Positions 7,768 to 40,147 of a stretch of DNA of 64,000 nt are shown here, piece after piece. Each line of letters starts with the position of its first letter. Position 1 is the first letter of the stretch. The notes under the pieces are model-generated. The model saw only the letters and a list, made by a program, of their open reading frames with translations, had not been told where the DNA came from and searched no databases. Source of the stretch: a virus; the IMG/VR virus record IMGVR_UViG_3300046467_002136, positions 50,038-114,037 of that record, one strand, 5' to 3'. The position numbers and the translations under genes are program-made.

Positions 7768-8284
7768 CGAATTTCCCTACCGCTCTTGACCAGTCGATGT
7801 TCTCCAAGGCTTCCAAGTGGTTCTTAGGCCATTCGTATTCCGAAGCATCAAAACGAGATCGACCCATTTGTTCGAGAATCCACGCATCACACATATCGTC
7901 GGCACCCTTGCCCTCCCAAACTAATCCAGTTCGGGCAGAGATTGCAGAGATGACTTCAACCTTTGACGCGTTTCCTCTTCCGGTTGCGAACTTGGCACGG
8001 CAGGTCGGAGGGATGTCTACGACGGTGTAGTTGTCCTCGTGCAGAGCAAGACGAATGACGCCACCCAGTTCTCCGATGGAATGAGCCTGACTCGCCCGCG
8101 AAGCAAACGAGTAGCCCTCAATCAAGACCACATCCGGGCGATGTTCCCGGCAGACGAGCATGACCTCATCCCTGATGGCCGCAAGCCGTTCCACACCCTT
8201 CTCCTTAACGGCGATTGCGCCCATGTCTTTGTCACAGGAATATCCCGTAGATGTAAGCGACAGGTCAAGACCCATAAACTTCAT
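7760..8284 (-). CDS. ruvC: RuvC-like Holliday junction resolvase
   Basis: GLDLSLTSTG, VLIEGY, KFATGRGNASK and DDMCDA acidic catalytic motifs. Confidence 0.8.
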   Translation of the reverse strand: MKFMGLDLSLTSTGYSCDKDMGAIAVKEKGVERLAAIRDEVMLVCREHRPDVVLIEGYSFASRASQAHSIGELGGVIRLALHEDNYTVVDIPPTCRAKFATGRGNASKVEVISAISARTGLVWEGKGADDMCDAWILEQMGRSRFDASEYEWPKNHLEALENIDWSRAVGKFDD

Positions 8285-8661
8285 GGTTTTTTTCGCCATC
8301 CGGGGATAGCCAAGCCAAGCTCGATTGCAGTTGCCGGTTCACGTCCGATACGGTCATGACAATCACGACACACAGCCATAAGATTTTCTTCTTCAAGAAT
8401 GGAGCCACCCTGTGAGCGGCGTTTCAATTCGTGAATATCGACGCTTGCATTCCGTTTGTAAAGTGTTACCTCATCGTGCTGTGCCCAAATTGGGCATGCC
8501 TCACAGTAGGGTCGCTCTTGCAGGAGACGAGACACCACCTTCCTGCGTTCGACGTACTTCTGCTGCATCTTCTTGCTGCGTGGGTTAAGAGAGCCTGTTC
8601 GCTTTAATGAGCCACTTCGTTTAAGCGGCCCACCACGGTTCATAGGCTTCTTGCGTTTCAT
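8281..8661 (-). CDS. HNH endonuclease
   Basis: CEAC...DIHELKRRSQGGS...NLMAVCRDCH motif. Confidence 0.85.
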   Translation of the reverse strand: MKRKKPMNRGGPLKRSGSLKRTGSLNPRSKKMQQKYVERRKVVSRLLQERPYCEACPIWAQHDEVTLYKRNASVDIHELKRRSQGGSILEEENLMAVCRDCHDRIGREPATAIELGLAIPGWRKKP

Positions 8662-22309: not shown

Positions 22310-25300
22310 ATGACCGAGTTCTCTCCAAAAAAAAGAACCTACCTCTCAGCAAGAATCCGTCGTAGACGACGAGATTTAGAAGCTGCTGGGCTGGACTTTC
22401 TTGAACGTAGAAACGTTCTTGCTGCACAGCCAACCCTTAACGCTCAAATTGTAGTTAAGGCGCTTGATGGCAGTATCGGAGATTCTCCTGAAAAGGAAAA
22501 AGATAAGTCCAAGAAGCGCACAGCTGGTTCAGGGGTTAAAGAGATAGAGCCCGAGGTTCGTTACGACCCTAAAGGTGTTCGTGATCCTGGACAAGTTTTC
22601 AAACTGCATGTCACTGCTCGTGACCTCAAAACAGGTGAAGACAATTTCGGGTGGATTGATCCGCCCGAGGCAGTGCCGAAAGAAAAACAGCGCTCCAGTA
22701 TGGCTGACGCTATGCAGTGGCGGGCAACTCGGCCTCAGATTCGGATACGGACTTACGATCAGGACCCAAGAACGGGTCAACCAATCGTTGAGACTGAGGA
22801 AGAAATTCAGGTCAAAGGTCTCGGTAGAACCCTCAAAGACACCCTTCCGGGCCAAAGTCTTGGGGGGCGTGCGGCCAGCGGCCTTGGTCTCATTGTTGAC
22901 GCTTTAGGAAAATTCCGTTGCCCACCCGGCACTCCGGCGGCCAATCAGTTCACCGACGAGTTCGGGACAAACTGTTTCTCGCCTGTAGAGATATTACGCG
23001 ACACAGTCCGGGGTCTTGTCAATAGTCTCAGATCCAGCAGAGGCCGAAGCTGGTCATTACCCGGTCGAGGCGATAGCGAAGCGGAACAGCTGAGGTCCAA
23101 TATCGCAGAGCGGCGCGCAGCCGCCGGTAAAGCCGGACAGCTTATTGGTAATACTGCGTCGATTGAAGCAGCCTTGATTGAACGCAACACCGTTATTCAA
23201 TCTTTAATGGATCAGTACGGCATTTCAGCTGGAGACGAACTAAACGAGGATATGTGGTCATTGTTGGAAGCAATGACCGATGTAGATACCGGTGATTTCC
23301 CCGACCTGGAATGGAAAGGATTGTTCACCAGCATGTTCGGAGATGAACTCTGGGATGAAAATCTTACGATGCGTCAAAATTTGGAAAAGATGCGTGCGGC
23401 AGTTCGCGAAGACGTATTCAGTTTCATGGGTGCACAAACCAAAACGGGTGCACAAGCAATCCGGGATTCGTATAACCATAGAGACCCCAAAGCGATGGCA
23501 ATGGTTGACGGTCTTGTTGGTCGACACGAATCAGCGATGCGAGGATTCTTAGGTTCGACTCTTCACGAGTTCGGAGACGATCCGAGAGCCATGAGCGGTC
23601 TCAAAAAGATTTCTTTCCGAGCCTACAACCCAGATATTGACGACTTCCAAAGCTATTGGGGTACCGAAGGGGAATGTATTCCCCTCTGGGAAGGTACCGG
23701 CACCGGGATGGCCACCAAACTCCAATTCAACGCTACTGCCATTGCCCTGCGACCGTTTCAAGAGGGTGGACTGACTCATGAGGGTCCGGACGGTCGACCA
23801 AAACTCGTACAGGTTGATGCTGGAGGCGCCTTTTCGGCATCAGTAACAGACGCCGAGAAATGGGCGGCAATCGCAGACTTTCTTGCACATACTGAAAAAA
23901 TGGAATACTGGCATAAACAATATGCAAATGACCTTACTGCCTCTGCTCACGGTGGAAGCCTCGAAGCCTTTTCCATGCATGTCGGATATCACGAACTTGC
24001 ACACGTTAAACAGTATCAACAGATCGCACAACGAGTATTAGAAACCTATGAGCGTGATGGTCAATTCTCGATTTACAAAAGAGACGGCACTGGACTCGAA
24101 TTATTAACTGCGAATCCTTCTGAATGGACAAACGAACAGTTCGCTATGGCCGTTGCCTCCACATTCCAAGATGCGCTTCCACCCGGCACCACTACCGACT
24201 TTCCCCCGATGGACATGGTCCAATTTGAGGGAAGCATGCTGCATCTTCTCGCAGGACAATATTACCAAGACCTGGTTCAAGGTTTCCTGCAAGCAACCTC
24301 TGGTGGTTATGCAGAAGATATTACTCCGGGTCAATATGTGAGTCCTTTGGACGCCAGAGGACTACCTGTTCACAATTCGGCGAAAGCCCACCTCAACCTG
24401 TTGTTTCTAGAGGGAACAGCTGAACTAGCGGCTCTTAAACGAACCGGAGGCATCGCAGGCGACGAACTCAATGAAGTTCTTGATTGGATGGACGCAGACA
24501 TAGCAGACGTTGTCTACGGGATTCCAGAGGTTGACGTTCCGTTTAAACCCGGTTCCATTGTTTCCGACACTGACATGGGTGAAGCGCCTTGGGACACTCC
24601 TCTCGAACCGGGCGAAGTTATGACGCCATCAGGCATCATTATTCCGACTAGTGCTGTGAAAAAGATAGAAGCAGCAGCGGCGAGGAAGAGGCAAGAACGC
24701 CAACTAACTACGGAGAAGCGAAAGCTCGAAACTGCTAGACGATTGCGGCATCGAACAGAAATACACAGTTGGGGCAGCGGCGGGGACGGTGAAATCAAAA
24801 CTGCGTCTGATGGAACAAAATATGTTTGGATCGGAGCATTAAGTGGTGAGGGCGAATGGCAGGTGCTATTTGATGACCTGTTTGAACCAGCATTTCTGGA
24901 GGAGCTAGAAGGTGTCACCCCACCCGAAGTGGACTATGACCTTCCACCCGGCATGCGCTCTGGCGGTATGCGCTCTAGGCGAGAATTGGGCCAATTCGAC
25001 AACGGACCCAGAGTCGGAAAGTTTTCCGGAGAAACACACGAAGAACCAGACGGCTCAGTCTGGGAGTTTCGCCCTACTCTTCGGGATCGTCCAGAAAAAG
25101 GTGGTTTCTGGCGTGATATGACAGACCCTGCAAACCGACGAGAAATAGCCGAACGCGCCACACGCAGACGCCAATTGGAAGCTCAAGAGGGTCGAAGCAT
25201 GGGACGACTTGCTCGCCCGGGGGCTGGAAGCGAATGGGAAAACATTGTCCGGAGGGGCGATGGCGGGATGCGTTCCACAAGGGCCACTGTGGGACAAAGT

Positions 25301-28300
25301 CTCACTCCCGAGGAGATCAACGATCACGCAATACTTGACGACCTAGAACTAGAACTGGAGAGATTAGACGCAGCGTCCCCCACCCTTCTGGGGCGGTTGC
25401 GTCAAAAGTTTGGTGGCCACAAAGGGCTCGAACAGCGCAAAGAGAGACACCGAGAGAGTATTGCAGCCGTTAAGGAAGCATTAGCTGAGGGCAGATTCGT
25501 CGAAAGTCTGGATGATTACATAAACCTTACCGACGAAGACAAGATGAAGTTTTTCGGACCTGAATACCATGGCAAGCCTCTCGTCGTCACCGCCGATCAG
25601 ACAGAACTTGCAATGAGAATCATCTTGGATAGTTATCGCCTCAACCCTGACGAATCTGATTCCGACAAACTCATGCACGTCAAAATTGTTCCCACTGATT
25701 CAATTACCGGAGAAGAGATCCAATCACTGCTGCATAAGGAATTCGCTGAGGCATTGGAAAACGGAATGCCTATTGCAGAGGCGCTAGAACAGGGTAATGA
25801 CATTGAAGCACAGCGCTTAATCGCAGAGTTCAACGCTAGCGACACCCCATTCATGCTCGGTAAAGAACATTATGACTTATGTAAGGTTTCCGTAGCGGGC
25901 TCAAACATGTTCTGTTATGACCACGAAGGCATATTGCGAAACAGCATGCCTCAGTTCAGTGGCCCTGTCTGGGATTTCGACACAGAAGAACACCAAAAGG
26001 TGTATGAAGACGCTATGACCAAGCTCGCCAACGCAGCCGGTCATGTCGACCCCTCAACGGATGAGTACGAAGACTGGTTCAAGTCCCCGGAAGGATGGGC
26101 CGCTAGGCAGGAAGCCCACAAGGAAGTGTTAGATGCAGGGGGCCAGGCGACGAAAGCCGCAACACTCTGGCATCAACAATTTGAAGAGAAGAAGAGACGA
26201 CTCATGTCGGAAGGGATGAGCGAAGCAGACGCCCTTCAAGGCGCAGCGGACGCAACCCAGTTCGGAGCAGATTCCACTCGTCAATTGATCGATCACTTAA
26301 GGGCAAACGGTGTTCGGGTCGAGGGTGGATTTGGCAAAGAAGATTTACGGCCCGATTCCGCCCGGATTGACGCCCCTGGCGATGATCTGGAAACCGGCAC
26401 AGAGAACCCGATCAAGAAAGCTTTGCTATTTCTTAAGGCCAGTCAGAACGAACTAATCGGACCCAAGGTGATGAAAGAAGCCCGGAAGGCGACCATAAAA
26501 CAACCTGACGGGACATACATCAAAAACCCGGACCACTGGCTCTTTAAAGGATTCGATGGTTCTTCAGATCCGATTTTGGTTACCGACGACGGGTTCATTC
26601 TTGATGGTCATCACCGCTGGGCAATGCTCGTAGCGGTTGCCAGTCTGACGGGAGATGAAGACGAAATTTTGGGCCACAAGAACGTTGTCGTCGTTCATAT
26701 GCCCATCAACGAAGCCTTGTCTTACGGGGTGGCCTTTGCCGACGATATGGGTATGCAGCGGGCACCCGCTGGACCGGATGAAGCTGCCCCACATCCTTCG
26801 ACGCTTCCTGACGTATCAGGAACGTGGGCGAAACGACAGGCTCTGGCTGACGAGAAGAAAAGTTTATTGCCTGAAAGTCCGGTCGAAGAACGTGGGATGC
26901 GATCCTCCCGTCGCATGCAAGGCGATTTCGACGAAATCACCCGGGTCGGAAAATTCCATGGAGAAACTCACACAGAACCAGATGGTTCAGTCTGGGAATA
27001 CCGCCCAACTCTTCGAGATAGGCCCGAACAAGGCGGGAATTGGATTGATCTTTCTGATCCCGGCATGCGACGACATATGGCTGATCGCGCAAGAAAAAGG
27101 CGTCTGGCAGAAGGCGAAGCCGGTGCTTTCGGTGGCTATGACCGTCCTAGAGGGCGTGCAGGTATGCGCTCCGAGCGTCTACCTCAAAGGGACGAAGAAA
27201 CCCGCCCAGGGTGGGACCATGCTCCGCATCGAGGCCGAGGGGTTCCTGATGGTTCGCCGAACCGCTTCCGTGAGGTACGCGGTGGTCAATATGTCAATAG
27301 CGAATGGGACGACATCAGTCGCGGCGGGATGCGTTCCCAGCGCAGAGAAATAGAACTGCGGAACATGGAACGTGAAATCCAAGCCGCAGTAGGGCGTGAA
27401 CGGGCTCTCGAAACAGATCTTCTTCAGCTCCGAGAAGATGAAGATGGTTTCGTTATTACTCGTGAAGAATTTGACAATTCGGTTGCCGAAATATCTATTG
27501 AGCGACAGGCATTGAAGGAGCGTAAGCAGCGACTGCAGCAACAGCACTCGATCCTTAAGCGCCATCGCGACAGGGGTTCTAGAACGGGCATGCGGTCGAT
27601 TCGTGTGAGAAAGCAAAGCGACAACCCCGGCGCAGCAGAAATGATGACCAATCGCAACGCCAGCTTGGCTGAAGCGATTCCGGATTCAGCGTTCTCTGCT
27701 CCCAGTGGTTGGGGAAGCAACTATGGAACTGATCGCACTTCTAGAGCCTTGCCGCCAATCCAAAGTCGCAGTAGCGCACTCTCGGATCACTATGAAAAAC
27801 TCGACAGTTCACTGGAAGATTTACTAGGAAGTGAAGACGGGCAATACCTGCAAGGGCCTAACCTGTCATTTTTGGAGTTCGACCCGGAAGTTGTCGAATT
27901 CCTATCCAACCACGAAAAAGACGAAGTTAGTGAGACTATTGCCAAAGCAGCCGTTCAATTCCATCGTGGATTCGACCGGAGACCAAGAGTCCTACTCGAT
28001 TCAGATGAATTTGAAAATCTGTTAGAAACAGGCAGCCACTCCAGACCAGATGTTCCATACGGCGAAAACAGTGTTGCGGATTTACGCATGGACTATGACC
28101 TTCGTAACGGTTTTGACACAAATACCCCGGCGTCTCAGCGTCCGGTAAGTGGACACCTGTATCACGCCATGGATGATGACCAAATATCCGAACGCCTCGA
28201 TGCCATTGATGGGCCGTTGATGGAACGACTCCCTGACTTCTGGGATTCAGAAGGAACGGCCCCTTGGGGAGATCCAGCAGCAATGGGTGGAGACATCGAC

Positions 28301-29041
28301 ATCGTTTTACGCCCAGAGGTATCCGACAGAACTCATTACGGATCAGGCGACGCTATGGGCCGTGGGGCCATTCCGACGCCCATGAACTCAAATGACGCAA
28401 ACGAAATTCTTGCTGCTCAGACCCCACGCTGGAACAGCGGGCAAGAAGATGGTCCCTTCAAAAACACTGTGAAAATGCACGACCTGTTAAAAGCGGGGGC
28501 AACTGGAAACTATAGAGATCTCTCCCCCGACGGTGAGCACCATGAAGCACAAATCGCTGGGGGTATCGATATGGACGACATTGAGTTTGTCCGCTATCCG
28601 GTCAACAAGCTCAATTGGCGCAATCTCAAACTCAGCGATGCAGATACAGGGAAAAACGACGAATCTGCAGCAGCCCGACTGCGCACTGCAGGATTTAGCG
28701 ATGCCGAAATTGGTTACTTCTATGACGCTATAAGCGATGGGCGAGTTGCAGGTTTACGAAATGTCAACTGGCTTCGCCAACATCTTGCAGCTCAAAAAGC
28801 ACAAGAACGATTCGATCGTCTTGGAGTTGATGTCAAATTCACAAACCCAGACGGGATAGACCTTATGAATGTTGATTCGTTCATGAGCAATCTTCCAGGA
28901 GCTATTTCAAGCACAACGCCTGCAGACGTTTTACGCAAACGGATACATCTTGAAATCGCAGAGCGCGCAACTGAGCTACTTCAAGATATTCGGAAAGAAA
29001 TGAAGCCAAATCGCAATGCCGCCGCAGGAGTTTTGGTCTGA
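22310..29041 (+). CDS. Giant GMRS-segmented polyprotein (zincin, ParB-like and DUF3626/ART-like modules)
   Basis: 2243 aa. Contains HELAH, DPILVTDDGFILDGHHRW and RPVSG...IVLRPEV..RTHYGSGD...HEAQIAGG, plus seven GMRS sites. Confidence 0.8.
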   Translation: MTEFSPKKRTYLSARIRRRRRDLEAAGLDFLERRNVLAAQPTLNAQIVVKALDGSIGDSPEKEKDKSKKRTAGSGVKEIEPEVRYDPKGVRDPGQVFKLHVTARDLKTGEDNFGWIDPPEAVPKEKQRSSMADAMQWRATRPQIRIRTYDQDPRTGQPIVETEEEIQVKGLGRTLKDTLPGQSLGGRAASGLGLIVDALGKFRCPPGTPAANQFTDEFGTNCFSPVEILRDTVRGLVNSLRSSRGRSWSLPGRGDSEAEQLRSNIAERRAAAGKAGQLIGNTASIEAALIERNTVIQSLMDQYGISAGDELNEDMWSLLEAMTDVDTGDFPDLEWKGLFTSMFGDELWDENLTMRQNLEKMRAAVREDVFSFMGAQTKTGAQAIRDSYNHRDPKAMAMVDGLVGRHESAMRGFLGSTLHEFGDDPRAMSGLKKISFRAYNPDIDDFQSYWGTEGECIPLWEGTGTGMATKLQFNATAIALRPFQEGGLTHEGPDGRPKLVQVDAGGAFSASVTDAEKWAAIADFLAHTEKMEYWHKQYANDLTASAHGGSLEAFSMHVGYHELAHVKQYQQIAQRVLETYERDGQFSIYKRDGTGLELLTANPSEWTNEQFAMAVASTFQDALPPGTTTDFPPMDMVQFEGSMLHLLAGQYYQDLVQGFLQATSGGYAEDITPGQYVSPLDARGLPVHNSAKAHLNLLFLEGTAELAALKRTGGIAGDELNEVLDWMDADIADVVYGIPEVDVPFKPGSIVSDTDMGEAPWDTPLEPGEVMTPSGIIIPTSAVKKIEAAAARKRQERQLTTEKRKLETARRLRHRTEIHSWGSGGDGEIKTASDGTKYVWIGALSGEGEWQVLFDDLFEPAFLEELEGVTPPEVDYDLPPGMRSGGMRSRRELGQFDNGPRVGKFSGETHEEPDGSVWEFRPTLRDRPEKGGFWRDMTDPANRREIAERATRRRQLEAQEGRSMGRLARPGAGSEWENIVRRGDGGMRSTRATVGQSLTPEEINDHAILDDLELELERLDAASPTLLGRLRQKFGGHKGLEQRKERHRESIAAVKEALAEGRFVESLDDYINLTDEDKMKFFGPEYHGKPLVVTADQTELAMRIILDSYRLNPDESDSDKLMHVKIVPTDSITGEEIQSLLHKEFAEALENGMPIAEALEQGNDIEAQRLIAEFNASDTPFMLGKEHYDLCKVSVAGSNMFCYDHEGILRNSMPQFSGPVWDFDTEEHQKVYEDAMTKLANAAGHVDPSTDEYEDWFKSPEGWAARQEAHKEVLDAGGQATKAATLWHQQFEEKKRRLMSEGMSEADALQGAADATQFGADSTRQLIDHLRANGVRVEGGFGKEDLRPDSARIDAPGDDLETGTENPIKKALLFLKASQNELIGPKVMKEARKATIKQPDGTYIKNPDHWLFKGFDGSSDPILVTDDGFILDGHHRWAMLVAVASLTGDEDEILGHKNVVVVHMPINEALSYGVAFADDMGMQRAPAGPDEAAPHPSTLPDVSGTWAKRQALADEKKSLLPESPVEERGMRSSRRMQGDFDEITRVGKFHGETHTEPDGSVWEYRPTLRDRPEQGGNWIDLSDPGMRRHMADRARKRRLAEGEAGAFGGYDRPRGRAGMRSERLPQRDEETRPGWDHAPHRGRGVPDGSPNRFREVRGGQYVNSEWDDISRGGMRSQRREIELRNMEREIQAAVGRERALETDLLQLREDEDGFVITREEFDNSVAEISIERQALKERKQRLQQQHSILKRHRDRGSRTGMRSIRVRKQSDNPGAAEMMTNRNASLAEAIPDSAFSAPSGWGSNYGTDRTSRALPPIQSRSSALSDHYEKLDSSLEDLLGSEDGQYLQGPNLSFLEFDPEVVEFLSNHEKDEVSETIAKAAVQFHRGFDRRPRVLLDSDEFENLLETGSHSRPDVPYGENSVADLRMDYDLRNGFDTNTPASQRPVSGHLYHAMDDDQISERLDAIDGPLMERLPDFWDSEGTAPWGDPAAMGGDIDIVLRPEVSDRTHYGSGDAMGRGAIPTPMNSNDANEILAAQTPRWNSGQEDGPFKNTVKMHDLLKAGATGNYRDLSPDGEHHEAQIAGGIDMDDIEFVRYPVNKLNWRNLKLSDADTGKNDESAAARLRTAGFSDAEIGYFYDAISDGRVAGLRNVNWLRQHLAAQKAQERFDRLGVDVKFTNPDGIDLMNVDSFMSNLPGAISSTTPADVLRKRIHLEIAERATELLQDIRKEMKPNRNAAAGVLV

Positions 29042-32000
29042 TGAAAGCTATTCATGTTGCCAATACGGGTGATAGCCGAATTTATTATCTATTGGAATCA
29101 GATAACGACTCTACCGGTGTAGTGGTCAAACGTAATTCTCCTCCAACATTCGTAAACTTTTTTGCATATGTCTCCAAAAAGCCGCAGATTCAACGTCTTA
29201 TGGATTCAGATTTTCATAAATTTCTTTGGACTGGCAACAAGGGGAGTTTGAAACCTCGCTGGGAACACGTCTTCATTGACCGAGTTGCCGAACCGGTTGA
29301 TTTGTTGGTTGGCGTAAACGTGATCAGCAAATTTAAAACAGACGACGGGCCTAATCGTGTCCGACAGATGGAAGAGAAAGCCAATCGAGCTATCGAATAT
29401 CGATCGCTGGTATCCGCAGGGCTTAACGAAAAAGCTTTTGCTAGGAGTGTCGGCAGAATGGCCGGTCGTGCAGCAACGGGAGCCGTCAGAGGTTTCCGTA
29501 GAGGAGTTCGATTTGATCGACATGCTCGTGACGGTGATTTAGATGGCTTTCTTCAGGAGGGCACAGAGTGGGCTAGAGCTGCCACGCCGTCACGAACAGA
29601 TCTCACTACGCAGGAAACGGTTGGATATAAGCAACCAGGACGACCACGGTTTATGAAAGATAAGCCGCCAGATCCCACAACTTTGTTTGATGCTTCACGG
29701 GAAGAGCTTCGGGCTGCCAAGGGTCGTTATTACCGCTGGAAGAAGGCAGAAGCGGGAGCATCCGCACACGGCGTCGGTCTTGTCGACCCCGAAGAACTCT
29801 TGCAAAGTTGGATCGATTTAGAAAATGAATTGAGTGAAGCGTTTCTTGATGGGCGTCCCATACGAACTACTGACGATTTTCGAGAAGTTGCAGCTCAACT
29901 TCACAGCGGATTCGGACCCAACCTCAATCAAAAGATGAAAATTGTTTACGATTCGAACGGAGATCCGGTAGACCGTAAATATGACATATCGGGGGGCAGC
30001 TATTTCGACTTGATTACCCCCGATCGGAAAGGCGACGAAGAGTTATCTCTGTATGAAAGATATACGGCATTAGCTGTCATGAGGGGATTAAGAGATAACC
30101 CTGATCTTCAAAACCACACCTTGCAAATTGCTCATGAGGACGATCTGGTCCCGAGTAATCCAGTCATCAATGGACCCAAAGGAGTTGGAGGTCAAGCGGG
30201 CGGTCTGATGGGCTGGAACTGGAAGGTCAACAAGATAGCCCTGCAACTATTGAGGGCTACTACGGGTACACGGGAAGAACGAAACAAACGGTTCTCCGAA
30301 CGCCTTGACGAAATGCTCGAAATTGACAAAGTGCCGTCTCAACGCAATCGTCACCCAAAACCGAGAATCACTATCGGCTTACGCAAAGAAAAAGATCATT
30401 CGAACCTACTTGATTTTGAAATCGGTTTAACTGCTGAATATGCTTCAAAAATGGGTCACAACACTGCCACTACTGCTCTGGTTGTCTTAGCGGCCCACCT
30501 TGACAATGTGCCCCAGAGTGAACAGGCGTCAGTTGTCAAACGAGGTAAAGCAATTTTTGGAGCCACGATCGCAACACACGAGTTCTCCGGACATGGAAGT
30601 CACACTTCAAATATAAAATCATTTGCAGATAAAGATGCAGGTGGTGATCACAACGCATTAAAACGGGCGTTTGAACGAATAAAAGAACATCTAGGAAAGA
30701 ATCCAATCGCTGACAAAACCGCGCTGGATCTCGATAGCGAACAGATAGACAAAACCGGCAAGGGTGGTTACAACTTGGCTCATGGAGCATTCGGCCCAAA
30801 GGCGATTGTGAGCATGGATAAAGCTTCTGCAAAATTATCAAACCAAGGTAAAGTCCGAGGCGTTCTAAGTGTCGAACCCGACACTATGGGGGTCGGACAA
30901 TGGCTGGGTTATCTCGACCAGAAGGAAAAGCCAGGTTCGAATCGAGTTGAGCGACTTCATGAATGGTTGAGGCAGCCCATCATGGATGGTGACGGCAACC
31001 CATTTACAGCCACTCCCGGACTCGCCCAGTACTTCAACGCATTGGCAGGTGAGGCTGGCCTTAGTTGGCCGGGTATCGATTTAACAATATCCCAGGGTGA
31101 AGAATTAACTCTTGCGCACGTTTTGTACGGGATGTCTCCCAGCATCAACTTCGGAGAAATTCAATTGCTTTCCGCCGAAGCCTCCAACATGGGCCTCACC
31201 AGATTGTCAGATCATCGAAAGGGTAAATACCTCAGCTACAGGCCAAGAACAGGAACTGCTTCTGGAGCGAACTGGACTGATATTACTGACAAAGCAATAT
31301 TTGTACGGGTTGGTGATGATATGAAACCATTAGATAGCATACCCAGTGGTGTGTTGGATCAAATACCCTGGTATATGAGCGTAGGCGGCGTAGAGTTATT
31401 TGATCAAGGCGTTTTACCCGCACCTACGGTACTCAGGGAACACGGAATACCTGCATTCAAATTTCCCAATACCCAAGGTTCATCGATTGACTCCTCAGGG
31501 CCGCACAGCTCGAACACGAGTTCCAGCGATCCGGTGTCGCCAGAAGATGTCGCACCGTTACTCGATGCTCATGCAGTAGTAAATCGGATTTTGGCTGATG
31601 AAAAATCTTCTATTCCAGTCACTCCACCCCCTGTCACCAATGTGCAAACTGCTTTTAAAGATCCATTCAACCCTACAGACCTAGAACAACGTGCCAACAA
31701 AAAGCGATTGAATGAGGAAGAGGTAAAAAGAAATCAAAACTATTTGGCCAAGCTTCTCAAAGTGAGATTTAATAAAATCAAAGAATCGAAAAGCGAAGTT
31801 GGCACAACAGGATTACCGATTACTGAATTAGTTTCAAATAAAAGTCCTGCACAAAGAGTCGAAATAAGACAACGATTAGTTGACCAGCTACTCGCTTCTC
31901 TCATCTATGACCACAAATTCATCGACCAAAGCCGACGTTCCAGCACCGCCCGCATCGACAAACCCCGGGGAGAAGGTGGCATAGATGCCATGAGAGATCA

Positions 32001-32394
32001 TCGCGTCTTTGAAGAGGGTGGACCACTCGAAGAGATTCTTAGTAACTTGGTCAGCGCTATTGTTCAAGACGGCAGCTTCTGGGATGGCTTAAATGACACA
32101 GACATCGACCTGCTGAAGAATTTATCAGATAATCTTGGGTATAGGGCTTATGGCAGTTATTCGGGTGCACACACTCCGCACGCTCTTCTCGACGAGCTAA
32201 CAGGAGGAGGACGCCACGAACTAGTAGCAGAATTTATGACTCTTATGAATACTGGAATGGATTTTCCGATTTGGGGTCCGAAAGGCCGTCGACCACTTAC
32301 CCCTGCGGAAGTTACTGCATTAACCCGCTTATTCAAATGGCTTTCTCCTAAAGGAACGCCAAAAATACGATCAGGAGGAATCACATATGACTAA
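29041..32394 (+). CDS. Giant head-locus protein with DGDxDG motif and zincin-like metallopeptidase motif
   Basis: 1117 aa. Contains FDRHARDGDLDGFLQEGTEW, THEFSGHGSH and a distal AYGSY...HELVAEF. Confidence 0.7.
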   Translation: MKAIHVANTGDSRIYYLLESDNDSTGVVVKRNSPPTFVNFFAYVSKKPQIQRLMDSDFHKFLWTGNKGSLKPRWEHVFIDRVAEPVDLLVGVNVISKFKTDDGPNRVRQMEEKANRAIEYRSLVSAGLNEKAFARSVGRMAGRAATGAVRGFRRGVRFDRHARDGDLDGFLQEGTEWARAATPSRTDLTTQETVGYKQPGRPRFMKDKPPDPTTLFDASREELRAAKGRYYRWKKAEAGASAHGVGLVDPEELLQSWIDLENELSEAFLDGRPIRTTDDFREVAAQLHSGFGPNLNQKMKIVYDSNGDPVDRKYDISGGSYFDLITPDRKGDEELSLYERYTALAVMRGLRDNPDLQNHTLQIAHEDDLVPSNPVINGPKGVGGQAGGLMGWNWKVNKIALQLLRATTGTREERNKRFSERLDEMLEIDKVPSQRNRHPKPRITIGLRKEKDHSNLLDFEIGLTAEYASKMGHNTATTALVVLAAHLDNVPQSEQASVVKRGKAIFGATIATHEFSGHGSHTSNIKSFADKDAGGDHNALKRAFERIKEHLGKNPIADKTALDLDSEQIDKTGKGGYNLAHGAFGPKAIVSMDKASAKLSNQGKVRGVLSVEPDTMGVGQWLGYLDQKEKPGSNRVERLHEWLRQPIMDGDGNPFTATPGLAQYFNALAGEAGLSWPGIDLTISQGEELTLAHVLYGMSPSINFGEIQLLSAEASNMGLTRLSDHRKGKYLSYRPRTGTASGANWTDITDKAIFVRVGDDMKPLDSIPSGVLDQIPWYMSVGGVELFDQGVLPAPTVLREHGIPAFKFPNTQGSSIDSSGPHSSNTSSSDPVSPEDVAPLLDAHAVVNRILADEKSSIPVTPPPVTNVQTAFKDPFNPTDLEQRANKKRLNEEEVKRNQNYLAKLLKVRFNKIKESKSEVGTTGLPITELVSNKSPAQRVEIRQRLVDQLLASLIYDHKFIDQSRRSSTARIDKPRGEGGIDAMRDHRVFEEGGPLEEILSNLVSAIVQDGSFWDGLNDTDIDLLKNLSDNLGYRAYGSYSGAHTPHALLDELTGGGRHELVAEFMTLMNTGMDFPIWGPKGRRPLTPAEVTALTRLFKWLSPKGTPKIRSGGITYD

Positions 32395-32806
32395 ATGGCC
32401 CGAACTCTCTGACGAACTCCCGGGTGCTGAATTTTTCACAAAAAACAACGAGCGGGCAGAAAGACAAAAACCTTCAACCCAAGATTGGCAAAGCCTGTTA
32501 GAACGGGCACTCGGTTATAAACCAAGCCAATGGACTGGACTCAGTCATAGTCGTGACGAACTAGTTGGGATTCTTCGTCAATTAGAAGATGGATCTGATC
32601 CACATGTTGACGACCGAAGAAACCCTATTGAAGAGCGTATCGAACGCTACCAACACAGCAAACAACGGACAAGAGATGACAGAGATGAACAGCTAGAGCA
32701 GGTTGTGGATCTTGGAAGTTTCTTATTTCCTCAATGGCACACACACAGGGGAAGAACCACTCGGCCATTGAATCCTGAACACTTCGCCGATCCAGGACTG
32801 AATTGA
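32387..32806 (+). CDS. Hypothetical protein (candidate immunity/partner)
   Basis: 139 aa with an AGGAGG RBS, overlapping the stop of the upstream giant gene. Confidence 0.6.
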   Translation: MTKWPELSDELPGAEFFTKNNERAERQKPSTQDWQSLLERALGYKPSQWTGLSHSRDELVGILRQLEDGSDPHVDDRRNPIEERIERYQHSKQRTRDDRDEQLEQVVDLGSFLFPQWHTHRGRTTRPLNPEHFADPGLN

Positions 32807-32832
32807 ACGTAAACTATTATGGGTGACTACAC

Positions 32833-33477
32833 ATGACAACTGACAGTTACGACATCAAAGGGCCACAGGACGTTCTACTCGATCTCCCCCAGGAGAGATT
32901 GACATCAATTACTCGTGGCCATGGACCAAGACGAGGCAATCTAGAGCGATTGCTTAGATATTGGCGCCCAATCATGAAAAAGCCCGGCGGGTTCACACGC
33001 TGTCGTGTCATTCTTAAAAATCACCCAGAGCTATACCCCCTGGAAAGAATTTGTGCGTGGCTTCATCACGAAACCACCGGCAAATGGCCCAATGAAGGCT
33101 GCCATCATCCGGGTATGAAGAACTGTAAAGGAAAACTTCGAAAGTTGGGATGGACAGATGCCGAGTGGGGCAAGCGAATACGCAAACGCTTCAAGAAACG
33201 TAAAAAAGGTTTTGATGAATCTTGGGATCAGGAAGACGTATTCTTCGGAGACTTCTTAGAGTCTAAGAGCTCTTATACGACTATAGAGTATAATCCTGTA
33301 GTAACTACAAGTGACCTCAAGCATGCTTCAACCGTTTTAGCTGATTTCGTTGTGATGGAAAAGGACTTCACGTCCTACCTCCGAGATCACAACAATTGGG
33401 AATTAGTCGGAGAAGGCGACGACGGCGACGAATGGGTTGCGGATTTCAGCGAAGCTAAGGACTGTGGGTGCGAATAA
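32833..33477 (+). CDS. Head-locus protein with Cys/His motif
   Basis: GNLERLLRYW...GGFTRC...CAWLHHETTGKWP resembles a motif I recall from actinophage head-morphogenesis proteins. Confidence 0.6.
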   Translation: MTTDSYDIKGPQDVLLDLPQERLTSITRGHGPRRGNLERLLRYWRPIMKKPGGFTRCRVILKNHPELYPLERICAWLHHETTGKWPNEGCHHPGMKNCKGKLRKLGWTDAEWGKRIRKRFKKRKKGFDESWDQEDVFFGDFLESKSSYTTIEYNPVVTTSDLKHASTVLADFVVMEKDFTSYLRDHNNWELVGEGDDGDEWVADFSEAKDCGCE

Positions 33478-35417
33478 ATATGGCGACTTCCTACACCTAC
33501 ACGAAGGAATTGGATTGCTGCGGCGGCTTGGAAGTGCAGGTCAAACGAACAATCTTACGAAAACTTGACGACACCATTCCTTCGGGTCTAATCCGGCATA
33601 CACGCGCATCTGACGAAATCATTGGCGAATACAAAGCCTTATCTCATAGAAATGGAAATACTCGTCAGTACGACATCAGCGTAACTACCAAAGCGGGTTT
33701 AGTCAGATCGGGCTCCCGTCTCGGGCAGGCAGCTCAGGCAGCGGGTTCGATCATCACACCTGGAAACATTTCTAGAGTTCGAAGTCCCCTACGTTCGGCT
33801 GGATGGCGGGCACTCACCCCTGGCCTCCCCGGAGGCGGACGAGGTATTCGCAAACGTGGACGGGCACACCGATGCCCAGAGGGCTACCAATACGGTGGTC
33901 GATTCACTGACAATCAACTATCCACTTGCGGCCAACAACTTTTTGATATTCCATCTGCCCTCGGTGCAACCATTGCCGCTATCCGCAGAGCCGCTGCCGG
34001 TGCACCCACGGCACCCGAAGGTGAGGTAATTCGTGGACGCCCGGGCCGAAACGTTTTACAAAGCCGTAAGCCAGACATTCCTCGCGTCGGGAACGACAAT
34101 CGCCAAGAACGTATTCGTGCTACAGGAAAAGTCATAGAAGCCATGGGTAAGCCCGACATAGACACGGCTCGGCTTGTTCGACGCGATGGCTTTCAGCTTG
34201 AACCAGTAGTTCCTCCCGCAGTATTGCGCACCATCCCCGACAACAGGGACATGGAAGGCGCCACCTACCTAATGAATCTCACATCCGTTGATGGAATGGG
34301 TGGCGAAGAGTTGGGTCTCCTCTCCAATACGGGAGTTACCAATATCTCTTACGTTCTTCCTGACGGATCTTCTCTTTCTATTGAAAAGGTTCGAGGGCTC
34401 ACAGTCGGTGAGCGTAGGAAACTGGGCCGCACTGTTAATGCTGCCATGAAAAAAGACAATTCTAAAGATCCTGCGGCCAGACTGAAATTTGTCGACGAGG
34501 AGACCGGAACGGGCATCGCATACACCGAGAACTGGGCAGGATCAGCTCGTTCCGTTGCGGATGCCCTCAAGTCCAAGCCAGGAAAAACACCCACGGTGGA
34601 AGCTGAAGCGCCCGAGGCTGAAGTGCCCGAAGGTGTTGGCGACAAAATCAGTAATGTCAGTGACGCTGTAACCCACATCAACGGTGGGGGCAGTCTCGCT
34701 GGAATTGATCCATCTATTCTCCAAGCTGCGATGCGAAAAGCGGGTAAAAAACGACCCGGAGGCATCATCGAGGTCGGCGATAACCGTTATCTTATGCAGT
34801 CTTCGAAAACCGATTTCGACCATTTGCACGTTGCTACGGCAGCGGAAATACAAAATCATCTAGGTCTGGCAGCATTCCCCCCAGCGTTTGCGGGGAAGGG
34901 TGGCAAGCGGCGCGACTACGTTCTCGCTGCTCCATCTATGGATACTGATCGAACATTCGACGATGTAGACCCAGCAGACGCGGTACGCATGCTCCTGGCT
35001 GACTTAATTCTCGGGGTCAACGATAGGCCGCCCACCGCTGTAGGAATACAAGGCGAAGCAACAGTACCGACACACATACCGTCTGCACTTGAAGATTTGG
35101 ATAAAATCAGCATACAAGAGAGAATTGAAGAAAGTATTTCTTCGATGAGACCACTTGCAGATGAAAGTATATATTCCTCGCATTATCAACAATTACGAAT
35201 AGCTCAACAGGAAGAATTCCGCAACGAACTTGAACGCCTTCTTGAAAGGGCTCGTACATTCAATTTTACTGATTATAAAGATCGCCTTTATCGTGACGGT
35301 TCTTTATCTGCAGCCGAAAAAACTCATCTAAATGTTATTCAAACAATTGTTGAAGCTCGCATCCAAACACTTGCTGCTTCCTATGACGCGATTCTTGACC
35401 GCTTGGACGGTAACTGA
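33468..35417 (+). CDS. Head-locus protein with RCPxG motif and degenerate HipA/PI3K-like C-terminal domain
   Basis: Contains HRCPEGYQYGGRFTDNQLSTC and AAEIQNHLGL..P...RMLLADLILGVNDR. Confidence 0.6.
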   Translation: MRINMATSYTYTKELDCCGGLEVQVKRTILRKLDDTIPSGLIRHTRASDEIIGEYKALSHRNGNTRQYDISVTTKAGLVRSGSRLGQAAQAAGSIITPGNISRVRSPLRSAGWRALTPGLPGGGRGIRKRGRAHRCPEGYQYGGRFTDNQLSTCGQQLFDIPSALGATIAAIRRAAAGAPTAPEGEVIRGRPGRNVLQSRKPDIPRVGNDNRQERIRATGKVIEAMGKPDIDTARLVRRDGFQLEPVVPPAVLRTIPDNRDMEGATYLMNLTSVDGMGGEELGLLSNTGVTNISYVLPDGSSLSIEKVRGLTVGERRKLGRTVNAAMKKDNSKDPAARLKFVDEETGTGIAYTENWAGSARSVADALKSKPGKTPTVEAEAPEAEVPEGVGDKISNVSDAVTHINGGGSLAGIDPSILQAAMRKAGKKRPGGIIEVGDNRYLMQSSKTDFDHLHVATAAEIQNHLGLAAFPPAFAGKGGKRRDYVLAAPSMDTDRTFDDVDPADAVRMLLADLILGVNDRPPTAVGIQGEATVPTHIPSALEDLDKISIQERIEESISSMRPLADESIYSSHYQQLRIAQQEEFRNELERLLERARTFNFTDYKDRLYRDGSLSAAEKTHLNVIQTIVEARIQTLAASYDAILDRLDGN

Positions 35418-38400
35418 TGAGACAGTTCGCTATTATCAAAGACGTTAGTTCAGACAAACTTTTTGCAATTATTGTCAAAGGTGATGATTTTACTGTCTGC
35501 CACGGGGTTCATCCTGTTGGCAAACAGTGGGCTGACAGTTACAACAAGGGTTTAACCAAATCCATTTATGACGACCTTCAGCCGGGAATTTCGGTTGGGT
35601 CGTTCGCTCCGGTAACCACAACAACGCAAGCTTTGATTGATGAGGCAATCGAAGGGAAACCCGTTCGTTTTCCTGATCACTCACAGCTTACATATGTCAA
35701 GTCAGTTAACTACAGATATGACGGAGAAATCCCCCAAGTAAAAGATGCAGGGCTATCAAATCTGACAGATAAAGATTTCTTTGTTGGGGCAGACTATAAG
35801 GGAGTAGCTTTTCGTGCCGATGCTGCAAGACTTTCACTTTTGGCCAAAGCTCGTTTAGGGCATTTTGGAACTGATTCTAAAGGTTTCAATTTTACTGAAA
35901 AGGGAACAGATCAGAAAGCTCTAAACGAAGAATTGTTTCAAACTGCTCGGGGGTCCGGCAATGTCCGTCGTGCAGCTAAAGCAGTGCTTTTAGAAAAGCA
36001 TTTAAACTTAGAGGAACATCCGGGGTATCTCGGAACAAGAGAACATTCGTCACCTATCCGTACAAAAGCCAATCGTCTTGGTCGAAGAATTGGCCGAGGA
36101 GGAGGCAGAGGTAGGGGTGGCGGAGGTATTCGCAAAATTGGACGATCGATGCAAGACCCGTTCGATCCAAAGGCTTGGGATGGAGATCATGACGGGATAG
36201 TTCAGGAGGGCACCATATGGGAACGCCCTTCAATACCGGGAGTTAACACGAATCTTCCGGGCCAACGTCGCACCCGAACAAAGCCTCGCAACTACCCAGC
36301 CGATGACGCAGACGGTGTCGAATTCAGATTGCGTAATCGTCGTGAAGAAAACCGTGCCCAAAATGAAATTCTAAGTACTCCGGTTGGAGAGGTTATTGAA
36401 GAATTCCCCGAAGCAACCGAAGCTCTCAGAAACACACTTTCAGGATTCCCTGAAGGCGATGACATCTGGGAAACTCCACTAAGAGACATCACAGATAATG
36501 GAGAATACTTCGGTGAGGATGATTTAGATCGACTTCTTGATGCTGCTGTACCACGGCGTCGAGAAGGTGCCACTGACAGCTTCTATCGCGATGAACAAGG
36601 CATGCGCTCCCAAAGAGACGCACCTCCACCTCCTCCGGTTCCCGAGCGTGAAAGTGAGCGTGATTTTGGCGACCCGCCTCCTCCCCCGCCTGTACCCGAA
36701 CGACGCGATTTACCTGAACCGCCAGAGCCTGGACCCCGAGCATCCGCTCCCGCTCCAGAGCCTCCAGAGCGGAAGCCACAATTAGTTCTACCTCACGCGG
36801 GTACGAGCCATGGGCAGATGACCCCTGAACAGCGACGAGAGCAACTCGACGCTATGGAATACGAAATCCCTGCCGCCAGAGCGAAGTCACGCCAAATGCG
36901 AGAAATCGCTCAAGAACGTAATCAAGATCTGAATTTCTTTAGGGGACGAGGCGCAGACGGGAAACGCCGAAACCGGCATCGTCCTGGCAGTGAGGCAGCA
37001 GCAGAGCGTGGTGAAAAGCCCTCAGGTATGAACGAGAACGCTTGGCATCGCAATGAAACAGAATGGCTTCAAAGACAGATCGACAGTGCCAACGAAGGCG
37101 TGTACTTTTGGGACCAAACAGATTACCAATGGTCCTTACAGCAGCAGAGTCTGCGAGAGTTTAATGCCCGTGGTGAAATGGCAGCCCCCCGGGGTATGCG
37201 TTCTGAACGATATGACATCACACAAGATGAAGCTGGCAAATGGCGTGTGATGGATACGGGCAACAGAAACATGCGGCTTCCCGAAGAATATGACAACCGC
37301 GAGGACGCTTTAAGAGAAGCGATACGAAGAGATAACCCCCGTGGTGGCATGCGATCTACGCGACCGCTTACGCCCGAGGAACGTGCTGACCACGAAGAAC
37401 GATTCGGCCCGGGAACACGAGATGGTACGCGACCGCTTACGCCCGAGGAACGTGCTGACCACGAAGAACGATTCGGCCCGGGAACACGAGATGGTACGCG
37501 ACCGCTTACGCCCGAGGAACGTGCTGACCACGAAGAACGATTCGGCATGCGTTCCTCAATTGAAGTTGGATCTGGACGCCCTAGTGGAGAACGGATCGCC
37601 AGGGCGCGGGAAGAAGTCGCCTTGTCAGCTGGACCCCAGCGGACCAGTGATGGCCGTCTGTATGACGAACGAACTCACGGAGAACTAGTAGATGCCTTCA
37701 CAGGTGCAGGATTGTCTATCTCTGAAGCAGAAGCAGAAGCAGATCGGAGAATGCAACATCGATTTGGTGACAGGTGGCTGCAACACCCCTTAAACCGTGA
37801 TCGCATATCTGGTCGAGGCGGCATGCGCTCGGAAAGCGGAGGCGAATCTCAACAAGATCGAATCGATCGCCGAGAACGAGGCGAGTTCGACGAAATGACC
37901 CGAGTCGGGCGAGCCGCCAGAGAAACTCATGAAGAGCCAGACGGTTCAGTTTATGAATTCCGTCCTACTCTTCACGACAAACCTGAACGGGGTGGCAATT
38001 GGATTGACATTACAGACCCCGGCCAAAGATCTGAAATGGCTAGGCGTGCTACGCAAAGGCGTCAACACGAAGCCCAAACGGGCACGAGCATGGGGCGGTT
38101 AGCGCGACCGGGTGCTGGCAGTGAATGGGATCGAACTACGAGAGGTGGAATGCGCTCTAGGACGCGTGATGCTTCAGTAGATCGTGCCTCTCAATTGCAA
38201 GGCATGCGCTCAGGCGGCAGACGACGCCGAGGCCAAGCTCAACCTGGACTTGATCGTCACTCAGACATTGACGGTCAGATTTGGGAAACTCTTACCGACG
38301 CTGAAAGAGCACATGTCGGAACGGCGATTGATACAGAAATGCGTAGACGCATGCACGGACTCGCATGGAACGACATGGACGGCATAGATCCTCGCAAGCC

Positions 38401-40147
38401 AAAACAAAAAAAGCGTTCAGAGATGACCCCCGAAGAAGAAATGGAAGCAACCTTCCACGTCAACCCCCTCGGAGGGATCGTAAAACAGTATTTCGATCAA
38501 GAAATCAGGCCAGGCTTTAAAAAAGACTATGACGGTGACGAACTTGCCCAAAAACTTAGGGACTATGTTTTCACCGACACCGACATCGACACCATCGAAG
38601 CCGCGATAGAAAGTCAAATCGAAGCGACTGGTGACGCAACTGACAAAGCTGCCGACCAGCTGAAAGATCAGTTAAGGGAAATTCGGATCTACCGAAACAT
38701 GGTCGAACAAAGCAATAACGGCAAAGACTCTGACGCCTTCCAATTCCTTGAGCATCTTACGCCAACACAGCGCGCCCGAATCTATAACCGTGCAAACGGT
38801 GCTGACAAGGATCGTCTGAAAACAAGTAAAGCTTCTTGGGGTCTCAGTAAGGGCAATCGCATCAATTCAACTATCGGCAGCACGTTCACTGAACGCCAGA
38901 CCGCCATTGACTCCGTTAAGCCCGGTGTGAGGCGTCGTGCAGGAGAGTTCTCCCGGTCGATGGCACAACGCATTTGGGCTCCAAACCCGAACAGTGCTTA
39001 TCGTCGTGCGCTTAGAAAGGCTCGACGCGGAGGGGCAGGAAGTTCTCTTCCCGGTTTCCGTCGTGAAGAGGATAAAAGATCAATAGTTGCCCGCCGTGTC
39101 GCTCAACTGCGACGCAAGTTGCGGGTCGTTAAGGGTCGTAAAGGTATTCAAGGCGCAATCAATGCTTCTGAAAAGAAACAAATCAAGAAAGCAGTCGATT
39201 TCGACGCAGACGGCAAGTTGGTTACAAGCGACGAAGGTATCGCACGTCTCGGCAAAGCCTCCAGAGCACTACTCGGCGACAAGTCGCTCCTGAAAGATGT
39301 CAGGATGAAGGGTCGTGGCGGTAAGGGCACGGACGGAGCTAGCGAAGATGAGGTCGAGAAGATACTCAATCAGAACCCAGAAATGGCTGTCATTTGGGAC
39401 GCTATGGGCATGAATGATTTGCCGGTTGTTGTAGACGATGACAACTTCGAAGCCCTGATTGATGCTGGCCATCCCGTTATAGGTCGAGGACACGGAAGCG
39501 CTAGCAATGCGACCGATTATCTTGATGACGAATTACGTTTCCTCCCCGGAGGAGGCGGTGAAGCATCAGGCAAGGGTGAGTATTGGTCAACCGGCCAAGG
39601 CAGTTGGGGTAGTTGGCAAACTACAGAAGGAGGCAACACAGCTGCTGTTCTTACACCCAATGTTCGTCGCATGGACGGAGACACTTTAGACGCCGAATCT
39701 ACCGCTAATAGATCCGTTAGTCAGGCATTCGAGCTTGTGCGAGCAACCTATCCCGGAGATGAATTAGAAAAAGCAGACATTGCCGAAGTCGTCTCCAAGA
39801 TGGATGCTGAAATAGCAAAAATAACAGATCTTGCCGAAGGTGCCCCTATTTGGGAAACCGAAGTTGGTCAACTCTGGACACACTTGTTGGATTCGATCCG
39901 CACCAGCGGCAACCCCGACTCTTTGAATGCCATGTTGCTGCTTAACAAAATTAATAACACCAGAGGCGGCAGAAACCTTATTGCCCCCATCTTGGGTTAT
40001 GACACAATCCAGTCGGGTAGCGTAGAGTTGGTGATGAACCGCAGTGCCGTCATCACCCTAGGCAGAACCCTTGGTTCTTCAGGATTGAGTCAATTCTTTA
40101 AGCAAGCATCAGATGTACGCAGCGAAGGCAGAAGGGCTAGAGCATGA
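35417..40147 (+). CDS. Giant GMRS-segmented polyprotein with C-terminal ADP-ribosyltransferase-like domain
   Basis: 1576 aa with the DGDHDG motif and seven GMRS sites. The C-terminus reads IGRGHG...GKGEYWS...LGYDTI...ELVMNRSAV. Confidence 0.75.
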   Translation: MRQFAIIKDVSSDKLFAIIVKGDDFTVCHGVHPVGKQWADSYNKGLTKSIYDDLQPGISVGSFAPVTTTTQALIDEAIEGKPVRFPDHSQLTYVKSVNYRYDGEIPQVKDAGLSNLTDKDFFVGADYKGVAFRADAARLSLLAKARLGHFGTDSKGFNFTEKGTDQKALNEELFQTARGSGNVRRAAKAVLLEKHLNLEEHPGYLGTREHSSPIRTKANRLGRRIGRGGGRGRGGGGIRKIGRSMQDPFDPKAWDGDHDGIVQEGTIWERPSIPGVNTNLPGQRRTRTKPRNYPADDADGVEFRLRNRREENRAQNEILSTPVGEVIEEFPEATEALRNTLSGFPEGDDIWETPLRDITDNGEYFGEDDLDRLLDAAVPRRREGATDSFYRDEQGMRSQRDAPPPPPVPERESERDFGDPPPPPPVPERRDLPEPPEPGPRASAPAPEPPERKPQLVLPHAGTSHGQMTPEQRREQLDAMEYEIPAARAKSRQMREIAQERNQDLNFFRGRGADGKRRNRHRPGSEAAAERGEKPSGMNENAWHRNETEWLQRQIDSANEGVYFWDQTDYQWSLQQQSLREFNARGEMAAPRGMRSERYDITQDEAGKWRVMDTGNRNMRLPEEYDNREDALREAIRRDNPRGGMRSTRPLTPEERADHEERFGPGTRDGTRPLTPEERADHEERFGPGTRDGTRPLTPEERADHEERFGMRSSIEVGSGRPSGERIARAREEVALSAGPQRTSDGRLYDERTHGELVDAFTGAGLSISEAEAEADRRMQHRFGDRWLQHPLNRDRISGRGGMRSESGGESQQDRIDRRERGEFDEMTRVGRAARETHEEPDGSVYEFRPTLHDKPERGGNWIDITDPGQRSEMARRATQRRQHEAQTGTSMGRLARPGAGSEWDRTTRGGMRSRTRDASVDRASQLQGMRSGGRRRRGQAQPGLDRHSDIDGQIWETLTDAERAHVGTAIDTEMRRRMHGLAWNDMDGIDPRKPKQKKRSEMTPEEEMEATFHVNPLGGIVKQYFDQEIRPGFKKDYDGDELAQKLRDYVFTDTDIDTIEAAIESQIEATGDATDKAADQLKDQLREIRIYRNMVEQSNNGKDSDAFQFLEHLTPTQRARIYNRANGADKDRLKTSKASWGLSKGNRINSTIGSTFTERQTAIDSVKPGVRRRAGEFSRSMAQRIWAPNPNSAYRRALRKARRGGAGSSLPGFRREEDKRSIVARRVAQLRRKLRVVKGRKGIQGAINASEKKQIKKAVDFDADGKLVTSDEGIARLGKASRALLGDKSLLKDVRMKGRGGKGTDGASEDEVEKILNQNPEMAVIWDAMGMNDLPVVVDDDNFEALIDAGHPVIGRGHGSASNATDYLDDELRFLPGGGGEASGKGEYWSTGQGSWGSWQTTEGGNTAAVLTPNVRRMDGDTLDAESTANRSVSQAFELVRATYPGDELEKADIAEVVSKMDAEIAKITDLAEGAPIWETEVGQLWTHLLDSIRTSGNPDSLNAMLLLNKINNTRGGRNLIAPILGYDTIQSGSVELVMNRSAVITLGRTLGSSGLSQFFKQASDVRSEGRRARA
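37358..37546 (+). repeat. Perfect 69-bp in-frame tandem repeat (about 2.7 copies)
   Basis: Identical units start at 37358, 37427 and 37496, encoding TRPLTPEERADHEERFGPGTRDG. Confidence 0.95.

Follow-up and report, generated by a model that had tools for sequence, protein, structure and literature searches.

Gene content of the locus

The window analyzed here is a 64,000-nucleotide stretch, bases 50038-114037 of the 114-kb IMG/VR record IMGVR_UViG_3300046467_002136, which belongs to an uncultured tailed phage and is estimated to be 76% complete. It contains a block of head genes in which four giant proteins, named pA, pB, pE and pF, are all encoded between the portal gene (13113) and the gene of the major capsid protein (43429). 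These four proteins are punctuated by a recurrent tetrapeptide, GMRS, and two of them, pB and pE, carry three copies of a cassette of about 90 to 110 residues whose nature is the subject of this study. The relevant features are listed below; designations such as L012 refer to related loci.

13113-15107, forward strand: portal protein, start of the head module
15206-20437, forward strand: pA, 1743 residues, with GMRS at 17582, 19691 and 19994, plus three GLRS
15275-15712, within pA (residues 24-169): S78 prohead protease domain (Pfam PF04586 and phrog_80)
22310-29041, forward strand: pB, 2243 residues, with GMRS at 24950, 24965, 25265, 26894, 27161, 27326 and 27587
24965-25276, forward strand: cassette copy 1, residues 886-989 of pB (104 residues), with an extra GMRS five codons upstream at 24950
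26894-27172, forward strand: cassette copy 2, residues 1529-1621 of pB (93 residues), with an intact core and a replaced tail
27107-27295, forward strand: 63-residue replacement in the tail of copy 2, which adds a GMRS (27161) and has no counterpart in the orthologous copy of L012
27296-27337, forward strand: original end of copy 2, now displaced, NSEWDDISRGGMRS, closed by the GMRS at 27326
29041-32394: pC, 1117 residues, with two smaller open reading frames (ORFs) between pC and pE
35417-40147, forward strand: pE, 1576 residues, with GMRS at 36599, 37193, 37346, 37544, 37820, 38147 and 38201
37820-38158, forward strand: cassette copy 3, residues 802-914 of pE (113 residues), with a 12-residue N-terminal extension after GMRS
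40461-43205, forward strand: pF, 914 residues, with GMRS at 41229 and 42501
43429-44763, forward strand: major capsid protein, HK97-type, without GMRS, end of the polyprotein block

Three divergent copies of one cassette

The core that the initial annotation had proposed, G-x-F-D...R-V-G...E-T-H-x-E-P-D-G-S-V-[WY]-E-[FY]-R-P-T-L...G-G-x-W...D-P...R-R, is indeed present in all three translations, and copies 1 and 3 do share SMGRLARPGAGSEW. Alignment of the three copies yields 48 invariant columns, with amino-acid identities to copy 3 of 71% and 62%, and BLASTP aligns copy 1 with copy 3 at 62% identity over 117 residues (E 6e-36). The reported divergence at synonymous positions is borne out as well: the proportion of synonymous differences (pS) reaches 0.67-0.79, which corresponds to saturation, and the nucleotide identity is merely 63-65%. 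The nonsynonymous divergence (dN) amounts to 0.25-0.31 and its ratio to the synonymous divergence (dN/dS) to about 0.09-0.18, or roughly 0.1-0.2. Since synonymous sites are saturated and dN/dS is low, the three segments are, as judged from this alignment, true paralogues, that is, old duplicates held by purifying selection on the protein. The stable unit is a core of about 70 residues, the N-terminal extension and the tail being variable. Pairwise identity within the core is 64-70%, so that the copies are equidistant from one another, and the single copy of L013 stands as an outgroup to all three (55-58%).

The claim that each copy is bounded exactly by GMRS has to be softened. All three copies start and end with this tetrapeptide, but their borders are not exact units. 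When flanks of 40 residues were added on each side, the homology of copies 1 and 3 stopped at GMRS. That of copy 2, as seen against its orthologue in L012, passes one GMRS. The 63-residue replacement that brought a new GMRS into the tail of copy 2 implies that the ancestral end of this copy lay one GMRS further on. The incoming tail (...GEAGA.GG.DRP...GMRS) also precedes a 51-residue module, called RYDI, in L013 and L020, and in L020 the GEAGA-type tail comes after a different module. The occurrence of the same tail before RYDI in these two loci indicates that linkers of about 20 residues preceding the sites can move independently of the cassette core. The borders of the cassette evidently lie near separators, not always at them.

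The GMRS separator

The distribution of the tetrapeptide is far from random. It occurs in frame 19 times in pA, pB, pE and pF, against 0.09 expected from composition and a maximum of 3 in 2000 shuffles, and it is absent from the 3688 residues of the other head ORFs. Outside the four polyproteins, the six frames of the window contain a single GMRS, at 8172 in a minus-strand ORF of 179 residues (7760-8299); about one is expected in six frames and this occurrence is compatible with chance. Two more DNA matches are found upstream in the 114-kb record, on the strand opposite the coding one, and are attributed to chance. When the second position is relaxed to G-[MLFV]-R-S, the total rises to 24 sites. 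The third positions of the GMRS codons vary, which indicates that selection acts on the peptide and not on the DNA.

The residues around the sites are mostly R, G, S and D, a linker-like composition, and cutting at all sites would yield about 30 fragments ranging from 5 to 883 residues. Read in this way, G-[M/L/V]-R-S splits pA, pB, pE and pF into about 30 modules. In orthologous pA tails the site positions are kept while the linkers diverge, and GMRS, GLRS and GMRA interchange. The conserved 144-residue C-terminal domain of pA, for which a scaffold role is only assumed, is preceded by the last GMRS of this protein, itself a conserved site. No separator was found in pC or pD, and none of the relatives compared shows a gene boundary in place of a separator.

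Exchange of modules between genes and lineages

The initial annotation took the segment from one GMRS to the next as the unit of duplication and shuffling, and saw in it support for a cassette architecture of the polyproteins. This architecture is largely supported by the exchange of modules at or near sites: segments bounded by separators are gained, lost, duplicated and permuted, the part of the claim that does not hold being the exactness of the borders. The gene that carries the cassette is itself variable, being pB (twice) and pE in the window and the protease polyprotein in L013. The RYDI module follows the cassette in L013, directly precedes it in the pE of L009 and is also present in the pE of the window, two further modules of which ('PQLVLPH' and 'TRPLT..HE.RFG') occur in other genes of L013. 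The pE proteins of the window and of L009 are collinear (90-93%), save for whole modules that are swapped or missing between sites. A comparison of pB with its counterpart in L012 is especially clear: the DNA is 100% identical over copy 1 and about 90% right past the closing GMRS, and the 30 residues ahead of the opening GMRS are unrelated. The pA tails of L021 and L025 display the clean loss of exactly one site-to-site module and, in distant lineages, the large modules of pB occur in another order, are duplicated or are missing.

This tendency was quantified on 35 polyproteins. Among 1249 internal BLAST end points, 20.6% lie within five residues of a site; the null gives 5.3%, with at most 8.4% in 500 randomisations.

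Two repeats located in pE lie next to separators. A perfect tandem repeat of 69 bp (37357-37546, 2.8 copies, 100% matches), which encodes T-R-P-L-T-P-E-E-R-A-D-H-E-E-R-F-G units, is confined between the GMRS at 37346 and 37544, and one diverged unit is found in the protease polyprotein of L013. Proline-rich repeats (P5-7 then V/R-P-E-R) begin directly past a GMRS at 36608-36800 (residues 398-460 of pE); in L013 they are located in the protease polyprotein.

Distribution of the cassette

A profile search of 1.84 billion representative proteins retrieved two true relatives, both of them polyproteins of near-identical phages, and a third, the L013 protease polyprotein, came from a further search of 5.8 billion clusters. 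Every true relative is embedded in a polyprotein and none is a stand-alone gene. The IMG/VR copies open and close with GMRS, except that of L013, which opens with GFRS. In total the cassette is found in four other IMG/VR records. Two close relatives, whose records span pB and pE, contain three copies at the same three positions; a third shows the pE copy alone, in a record that is a 25%-complete fragment; and L013 has one copy, in its protease polyprotein. The cassette is missing from L020, a close relative of L013, and from five records of greater distance with the same head genes, of which one is 98% complete.

No match was obtained in Pfam (0 families), in PHROGs (searched with the cassette as part of pB and pE), in the PDB by sequence profile search (0 matches) or in 50,697 phage records by TBLASTN (0 matches), and the ESM Atlas returned unnamed clusters only, with scores at chance level. 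Taken at face value, these searches define the cassette as an orphan domain confined to one small phage clade and always embedded. Three further profile matches, P0011-P0013, were discarded as repetitive, unrelated proteins. Another match, P0014, is a metagenomic protein of 112 residues made of two identical tandem units of 54 residues; its similarity to the 40-residue hairpin region of the cassette is weak (library search E 3e-4, probability by hhalign 37%) and constitutes an unproven lead only.

The structure of six distinct cassette sequences was predicted with AlphaFold2. The models are poor, with a mean predicted local distance difference test score (pLDDT) of 53 and a predicted template modeling score (pTM) of 0.26. 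They suggest a core formed by a short beta-hairpin over E-P-D-G-S-x-W-E-F and a single long helix of basic character, between ends that are disordered and have a low pLDDT.

Proposed release of the cassette by proteolysis

The arrangement described above can be accounted for by a single process. The cassette is probably a module released by proteolysis from polyproteins packaged in the capsid, the separator G-[M/L/V]-R-S being the putative processing site and the S78 prohead protease the most likely enzyme. The polyproteins would be loaded into the procapsid and cut there, most likely by the protease formed by the first 180 residues of pA. This domain scores 42.1 bits against PF04586 (gathering cut-off 21, E 1.3e-10) and has an E value of 1.7e-26 against phrog_80. 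Each copy of the cassette would leave its polyprotein as a charged peptide of some 10-12 kDa, kept in the head, and would enter the host with the DNA like the internal proteins of T4. The putative freed peptides comprise 89-109 residues, with about 20% K+R, 18% D+E and isoelectric points of 6.3-10.5. In such a system modules need only fold independently and be excised, and any recombination landing in a linker would give a working product; independent excision would in this way explain the cassette-like shuffling.

A wider proposal is more tentative, and is possible without being favored: a large, widespread clade of uncultured tailed phages would build its capsid cargo in the manner of the polyproteins of RNA viruses, using a four-residue mark that drifts between lineages and that would allow modules to be added, copied or transferred from gene to gene without losing their excision, and the cassette would be a new family of small injected proteins that diversifies in this setting. 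This drift was surveyed in the 80 best loci by taking the most frequent non-trivial tetrapeptide of each. GMRS is the commonest one in the nearest lineages and is replaced elsewhere by GLRS, STRS, SMRS, GMSS, GMTS or GFSS. The variants follow the clades of the protease tree; across them the last residue is Ser, rarely Ala, and position 2 is usually hydrophobic. Loci L028-L034, L049-L058, L065 and L081 have variants other than GMRS together with proteases that are about 75-80% identical, and many contain low-complexity runs of the PGMP type. The S78 domain itself is common to more than 590 IMG/VR stretches, with a mean column identity of 78% across 16 lineages.

Several observations weigh against the proposed release. 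The S78 domain is about 78% conserved though the motifs differ, so that the drift of the motif is not obviously matched by a change of the protease. The capsid protein and the portal lack GMRS, which leaves no internal positive control linking the motif to the head protease, and no GMRS-like motif is seen in the protease-scaffold proteins of the cultured relatives. A second candidate protease exists in pB, whose N-terminal 880 residues include an HExxHxxQY motif (23990-24004, residues 561-565) that recurs in the pB homologues of L013 and of each of the five distant lineages tested; the hydrophobic position 2 would be equally compatible with a zincin that cleaves in front of Met, Leu or Phe. 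Finally, the borders of the cassette are fuzzy and no function can be read from its poorly modeled fold.

Alternative explanations

Among the alternatives, the one that bears on the fate of the cassette accepts its cleavage and denies it an effector role. The cassette would then be a scaffold or core piece, or a DNA-condensing peptide comparable to the core fragments of T4, expelled as the head matures or kept as filler. A small, highly charged peptide present in three copies per genome, with no catalytic-looking relatives in profile, PDB and Atlas searches and a predicted structure reduced to a hairpin and one long helix, is consistent with this explanation. It is nevertheless doubtful, because the absence of the cassette from all the more distant relatives with the same head genes, the 98%-complete record included, and from L020 argues that it is dispensable for assembly, and because a variable accessory content fits cargo for host interaction better. 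From this context of a dispensable, variable cargo in a head module, the cassette is guessed to be a delivered accessory protein rather than an assembly part; that it might be a small internal protein binding nucleic acids or a host factor is a guess of low confidence.

The identity of the enzyme can also be questioned. The separators could be cut not by S78 but by the HExxH metallopeptidase-like domain of pB, by autoprocessing in the capsid or after injection, or else by a host protease. The pB domain starts giant ORFs of 1713-3435 residues in 5/5 distant relatives examined (32-37% identity), and its motif is retained as described above. The hydrophobic residues at position 2 of the separator (M, L, F, V) suit the P1' preference typical of thermolysin-like zincins. 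Iyer et al. (2017, PMC5512222) predict that zincin-like peptidases process the polyvalent proteins of phages. Against this stand the absence of any Pfam or PDB match for the domain, to which TBLASTN on cultured phages adds none, so that its protease activity is deduced from one short motif; the known multi-site processing of head cargo, which is carried out by prohead proteases (PMC5694885); and the fact that pA, with its conserved sites, itself begins with the S78 protease. Both candidate proteases are core genes of the clade and their co-occurrence therefore cannot discriminate between them. On balance, cutting by an enzyme other than S78 is considered unlikely.

It is less likely still that GMRS is left uncut, serving as a linker, as a docking motif for the capsid interior, portal or scaffold, or as a site of Ser modification in giant proteins that act intact. 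Such intact delivery has a precedent in the virion RNA polymerase of N4, a polyvalent protein packaged unprocessed (PMC5512222), and pC and pD, which have no site at all, would fit it. Sites that occur in pairs at a distance of five residues, and stretches of 5, 18 and 27 residues between sites, would however be unlikely docking units. The sites lie within linkers rich in R, G, S and D, the last residue of the motif is small and invariant across lineages (S, rarely A) as in protease sites, and the order of the modules is free, all of which speaks in favor of cleavage. In HK97, the capsid maturation cut falls after Lys and before Ser; this parallel to a cut between R and S was not confirmed by a literature search and serves as a lead only.

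The remaining explanation, in which the pattern reflects a recombination signal of 12 nt or internal initiation of translation at the ATG that every GMRS contains and around which break points cluster, already conflicts with the data and is hardly credible: the wobble positions of the four codons vary, out-of-frame matches in the rest of the genome do not exceed chance, and sister lineages use GLRS, STRS or GFSS, which contain no ATG.

Relation to known systems

Release of head cargo by proteolysis has precedents. In T4, phiKZ and SPN3US, the prohead protease cleaves numerous internal or ejected proteins of the head at short motifs, frequently at more than one position (PMC5694885). In T4 (gp21, capsid-targeting sequences, IPI-III, Alt), cargo encoded among the head genes is loaded, trimmed at a short motif and injected, and the products include small internal proteins that are charged (PMC5694885); the present polyproteins are likewise encoded among the head genes. 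The T4 protease belongs to family S77 and recognizes L/I-x-E sites, and its cargo proteins each have a small gene of their own and a single propeptide, whereas the present phage combines up to seven sites in proteins of 900-2250 residues, an S78 (HK97-type) protease and G-M-R-S. The phiKZ gp175 and SPN3US gp245 proteases likewise cut inner-head and ejection proteins, some of them multiply, at S/A/G-x-E or A-x-E (PMC5694885). They differ by their protease family and motif, their substrates mainly lose long propeptides and are not polyproteins arranged like beads on a string, and module shuffling at sites is not described there.

The giant proteins also resemble the polyvalent proteins of Iyer, Burroughs, Anand, de Souza and Aravind (2017, PMC5512222), which are giant, multi-domain, encoded near virion genes, mosaic and fast rearranging. 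Their predicted fate is to travel with the DNA and to be freed proteolytically, in many cases through a peptidase domain of the zincin-like kind. Unlike here, no defined separator motif is described in the sections of that study considered. Of the domains known in polyvalent proteins, only Zeta_toxin, DUF3721 and the HExxH motif can be recognized in the modules of the window.

Among phages in culture, the closest are Gordonia phages (Hanem and kin) and Brevibacterium phage Cantare. The proteases of these phages (Hanem gp34, Cantare gp13) are 39-43% identical to that of pA (41% for Hanem) and their capsid proteins 47-48% identical, and they too have cargo-like genes between the portal and the protease and capsid genes, coding for an RNA ligase, a VIP2-like ADP-ribosyltransferase toxin and hypothetical proteins of about 1000 residues. 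The protease protein of these phages, in contrast, has 418-454 residues, with an acidic tail and no GMRS-like motif, whereas in pA about 1400 residues of separator-bounded modules lie between the protease and the conserved C-terminal domain. The major capsid protein of the window has no N-terminal extension relative to those of the Gordonia phages.

If the sites are cut, the sequence alone would provide a parts list of about 30 mature head or injected proteins in a widespread group of uncultured phages, and a concrete processing rule for polyvalent proteins. Multi-site processing by a head protease would be extended from systems of the T4 and phiKZ types to those of the HK97 type (S78). Cargo could evolve fast, since it would be enough for a module to arrive between two such marks. 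Being orphans, the cassette and most of its neighbors would be candidates for functions in host takeover or anti-defense.

Other features of the head-gene block

The only module with a recognized Pfam domain is located at the C-terminus of pF, where a Zeta-toxin-like/AAA_33 kinase-like domain (residues 701-831/833) begins 20 residues past the second GMRS; it is likely a toxic or nucleotide-modifying cargo. DUF3721 occupies residues 13-43 of the same protein. A Pfam search with ten single modules gave nothing significant, so that a ParB-like 'DGHHRW' noticed by eye in pB is unconfirmed.

A second element is shared by several of the large proteins, at 16424-16702 (pA), 29440-29718 (pC), 36062-36355 (pE) and 41082-41318 (pF). 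It consists of a Gly/Arg-rich stretch followed by F-D-P-x-A-W-D-G-D-x-D-G-I-V-Q-E-G-T...R-P-S-I-P-G, with 51-56% identity among pA, pE and pF and a weaker similarity in pC; pB lacks it. The element sits close to the start of each protein, without GMRS at its borders, and is a candidate tag for capsid targeting.

Two neighboring genes complete the picture:

11548-12855, minus strand: terminase
20483-22285: ORF of 600 residues following pA

The latter product is weakly similar to the portal (28% over 111 residues, E 8e-7, without composition correction), a likeness that may reflect either a portal-derived domain or an artefact.

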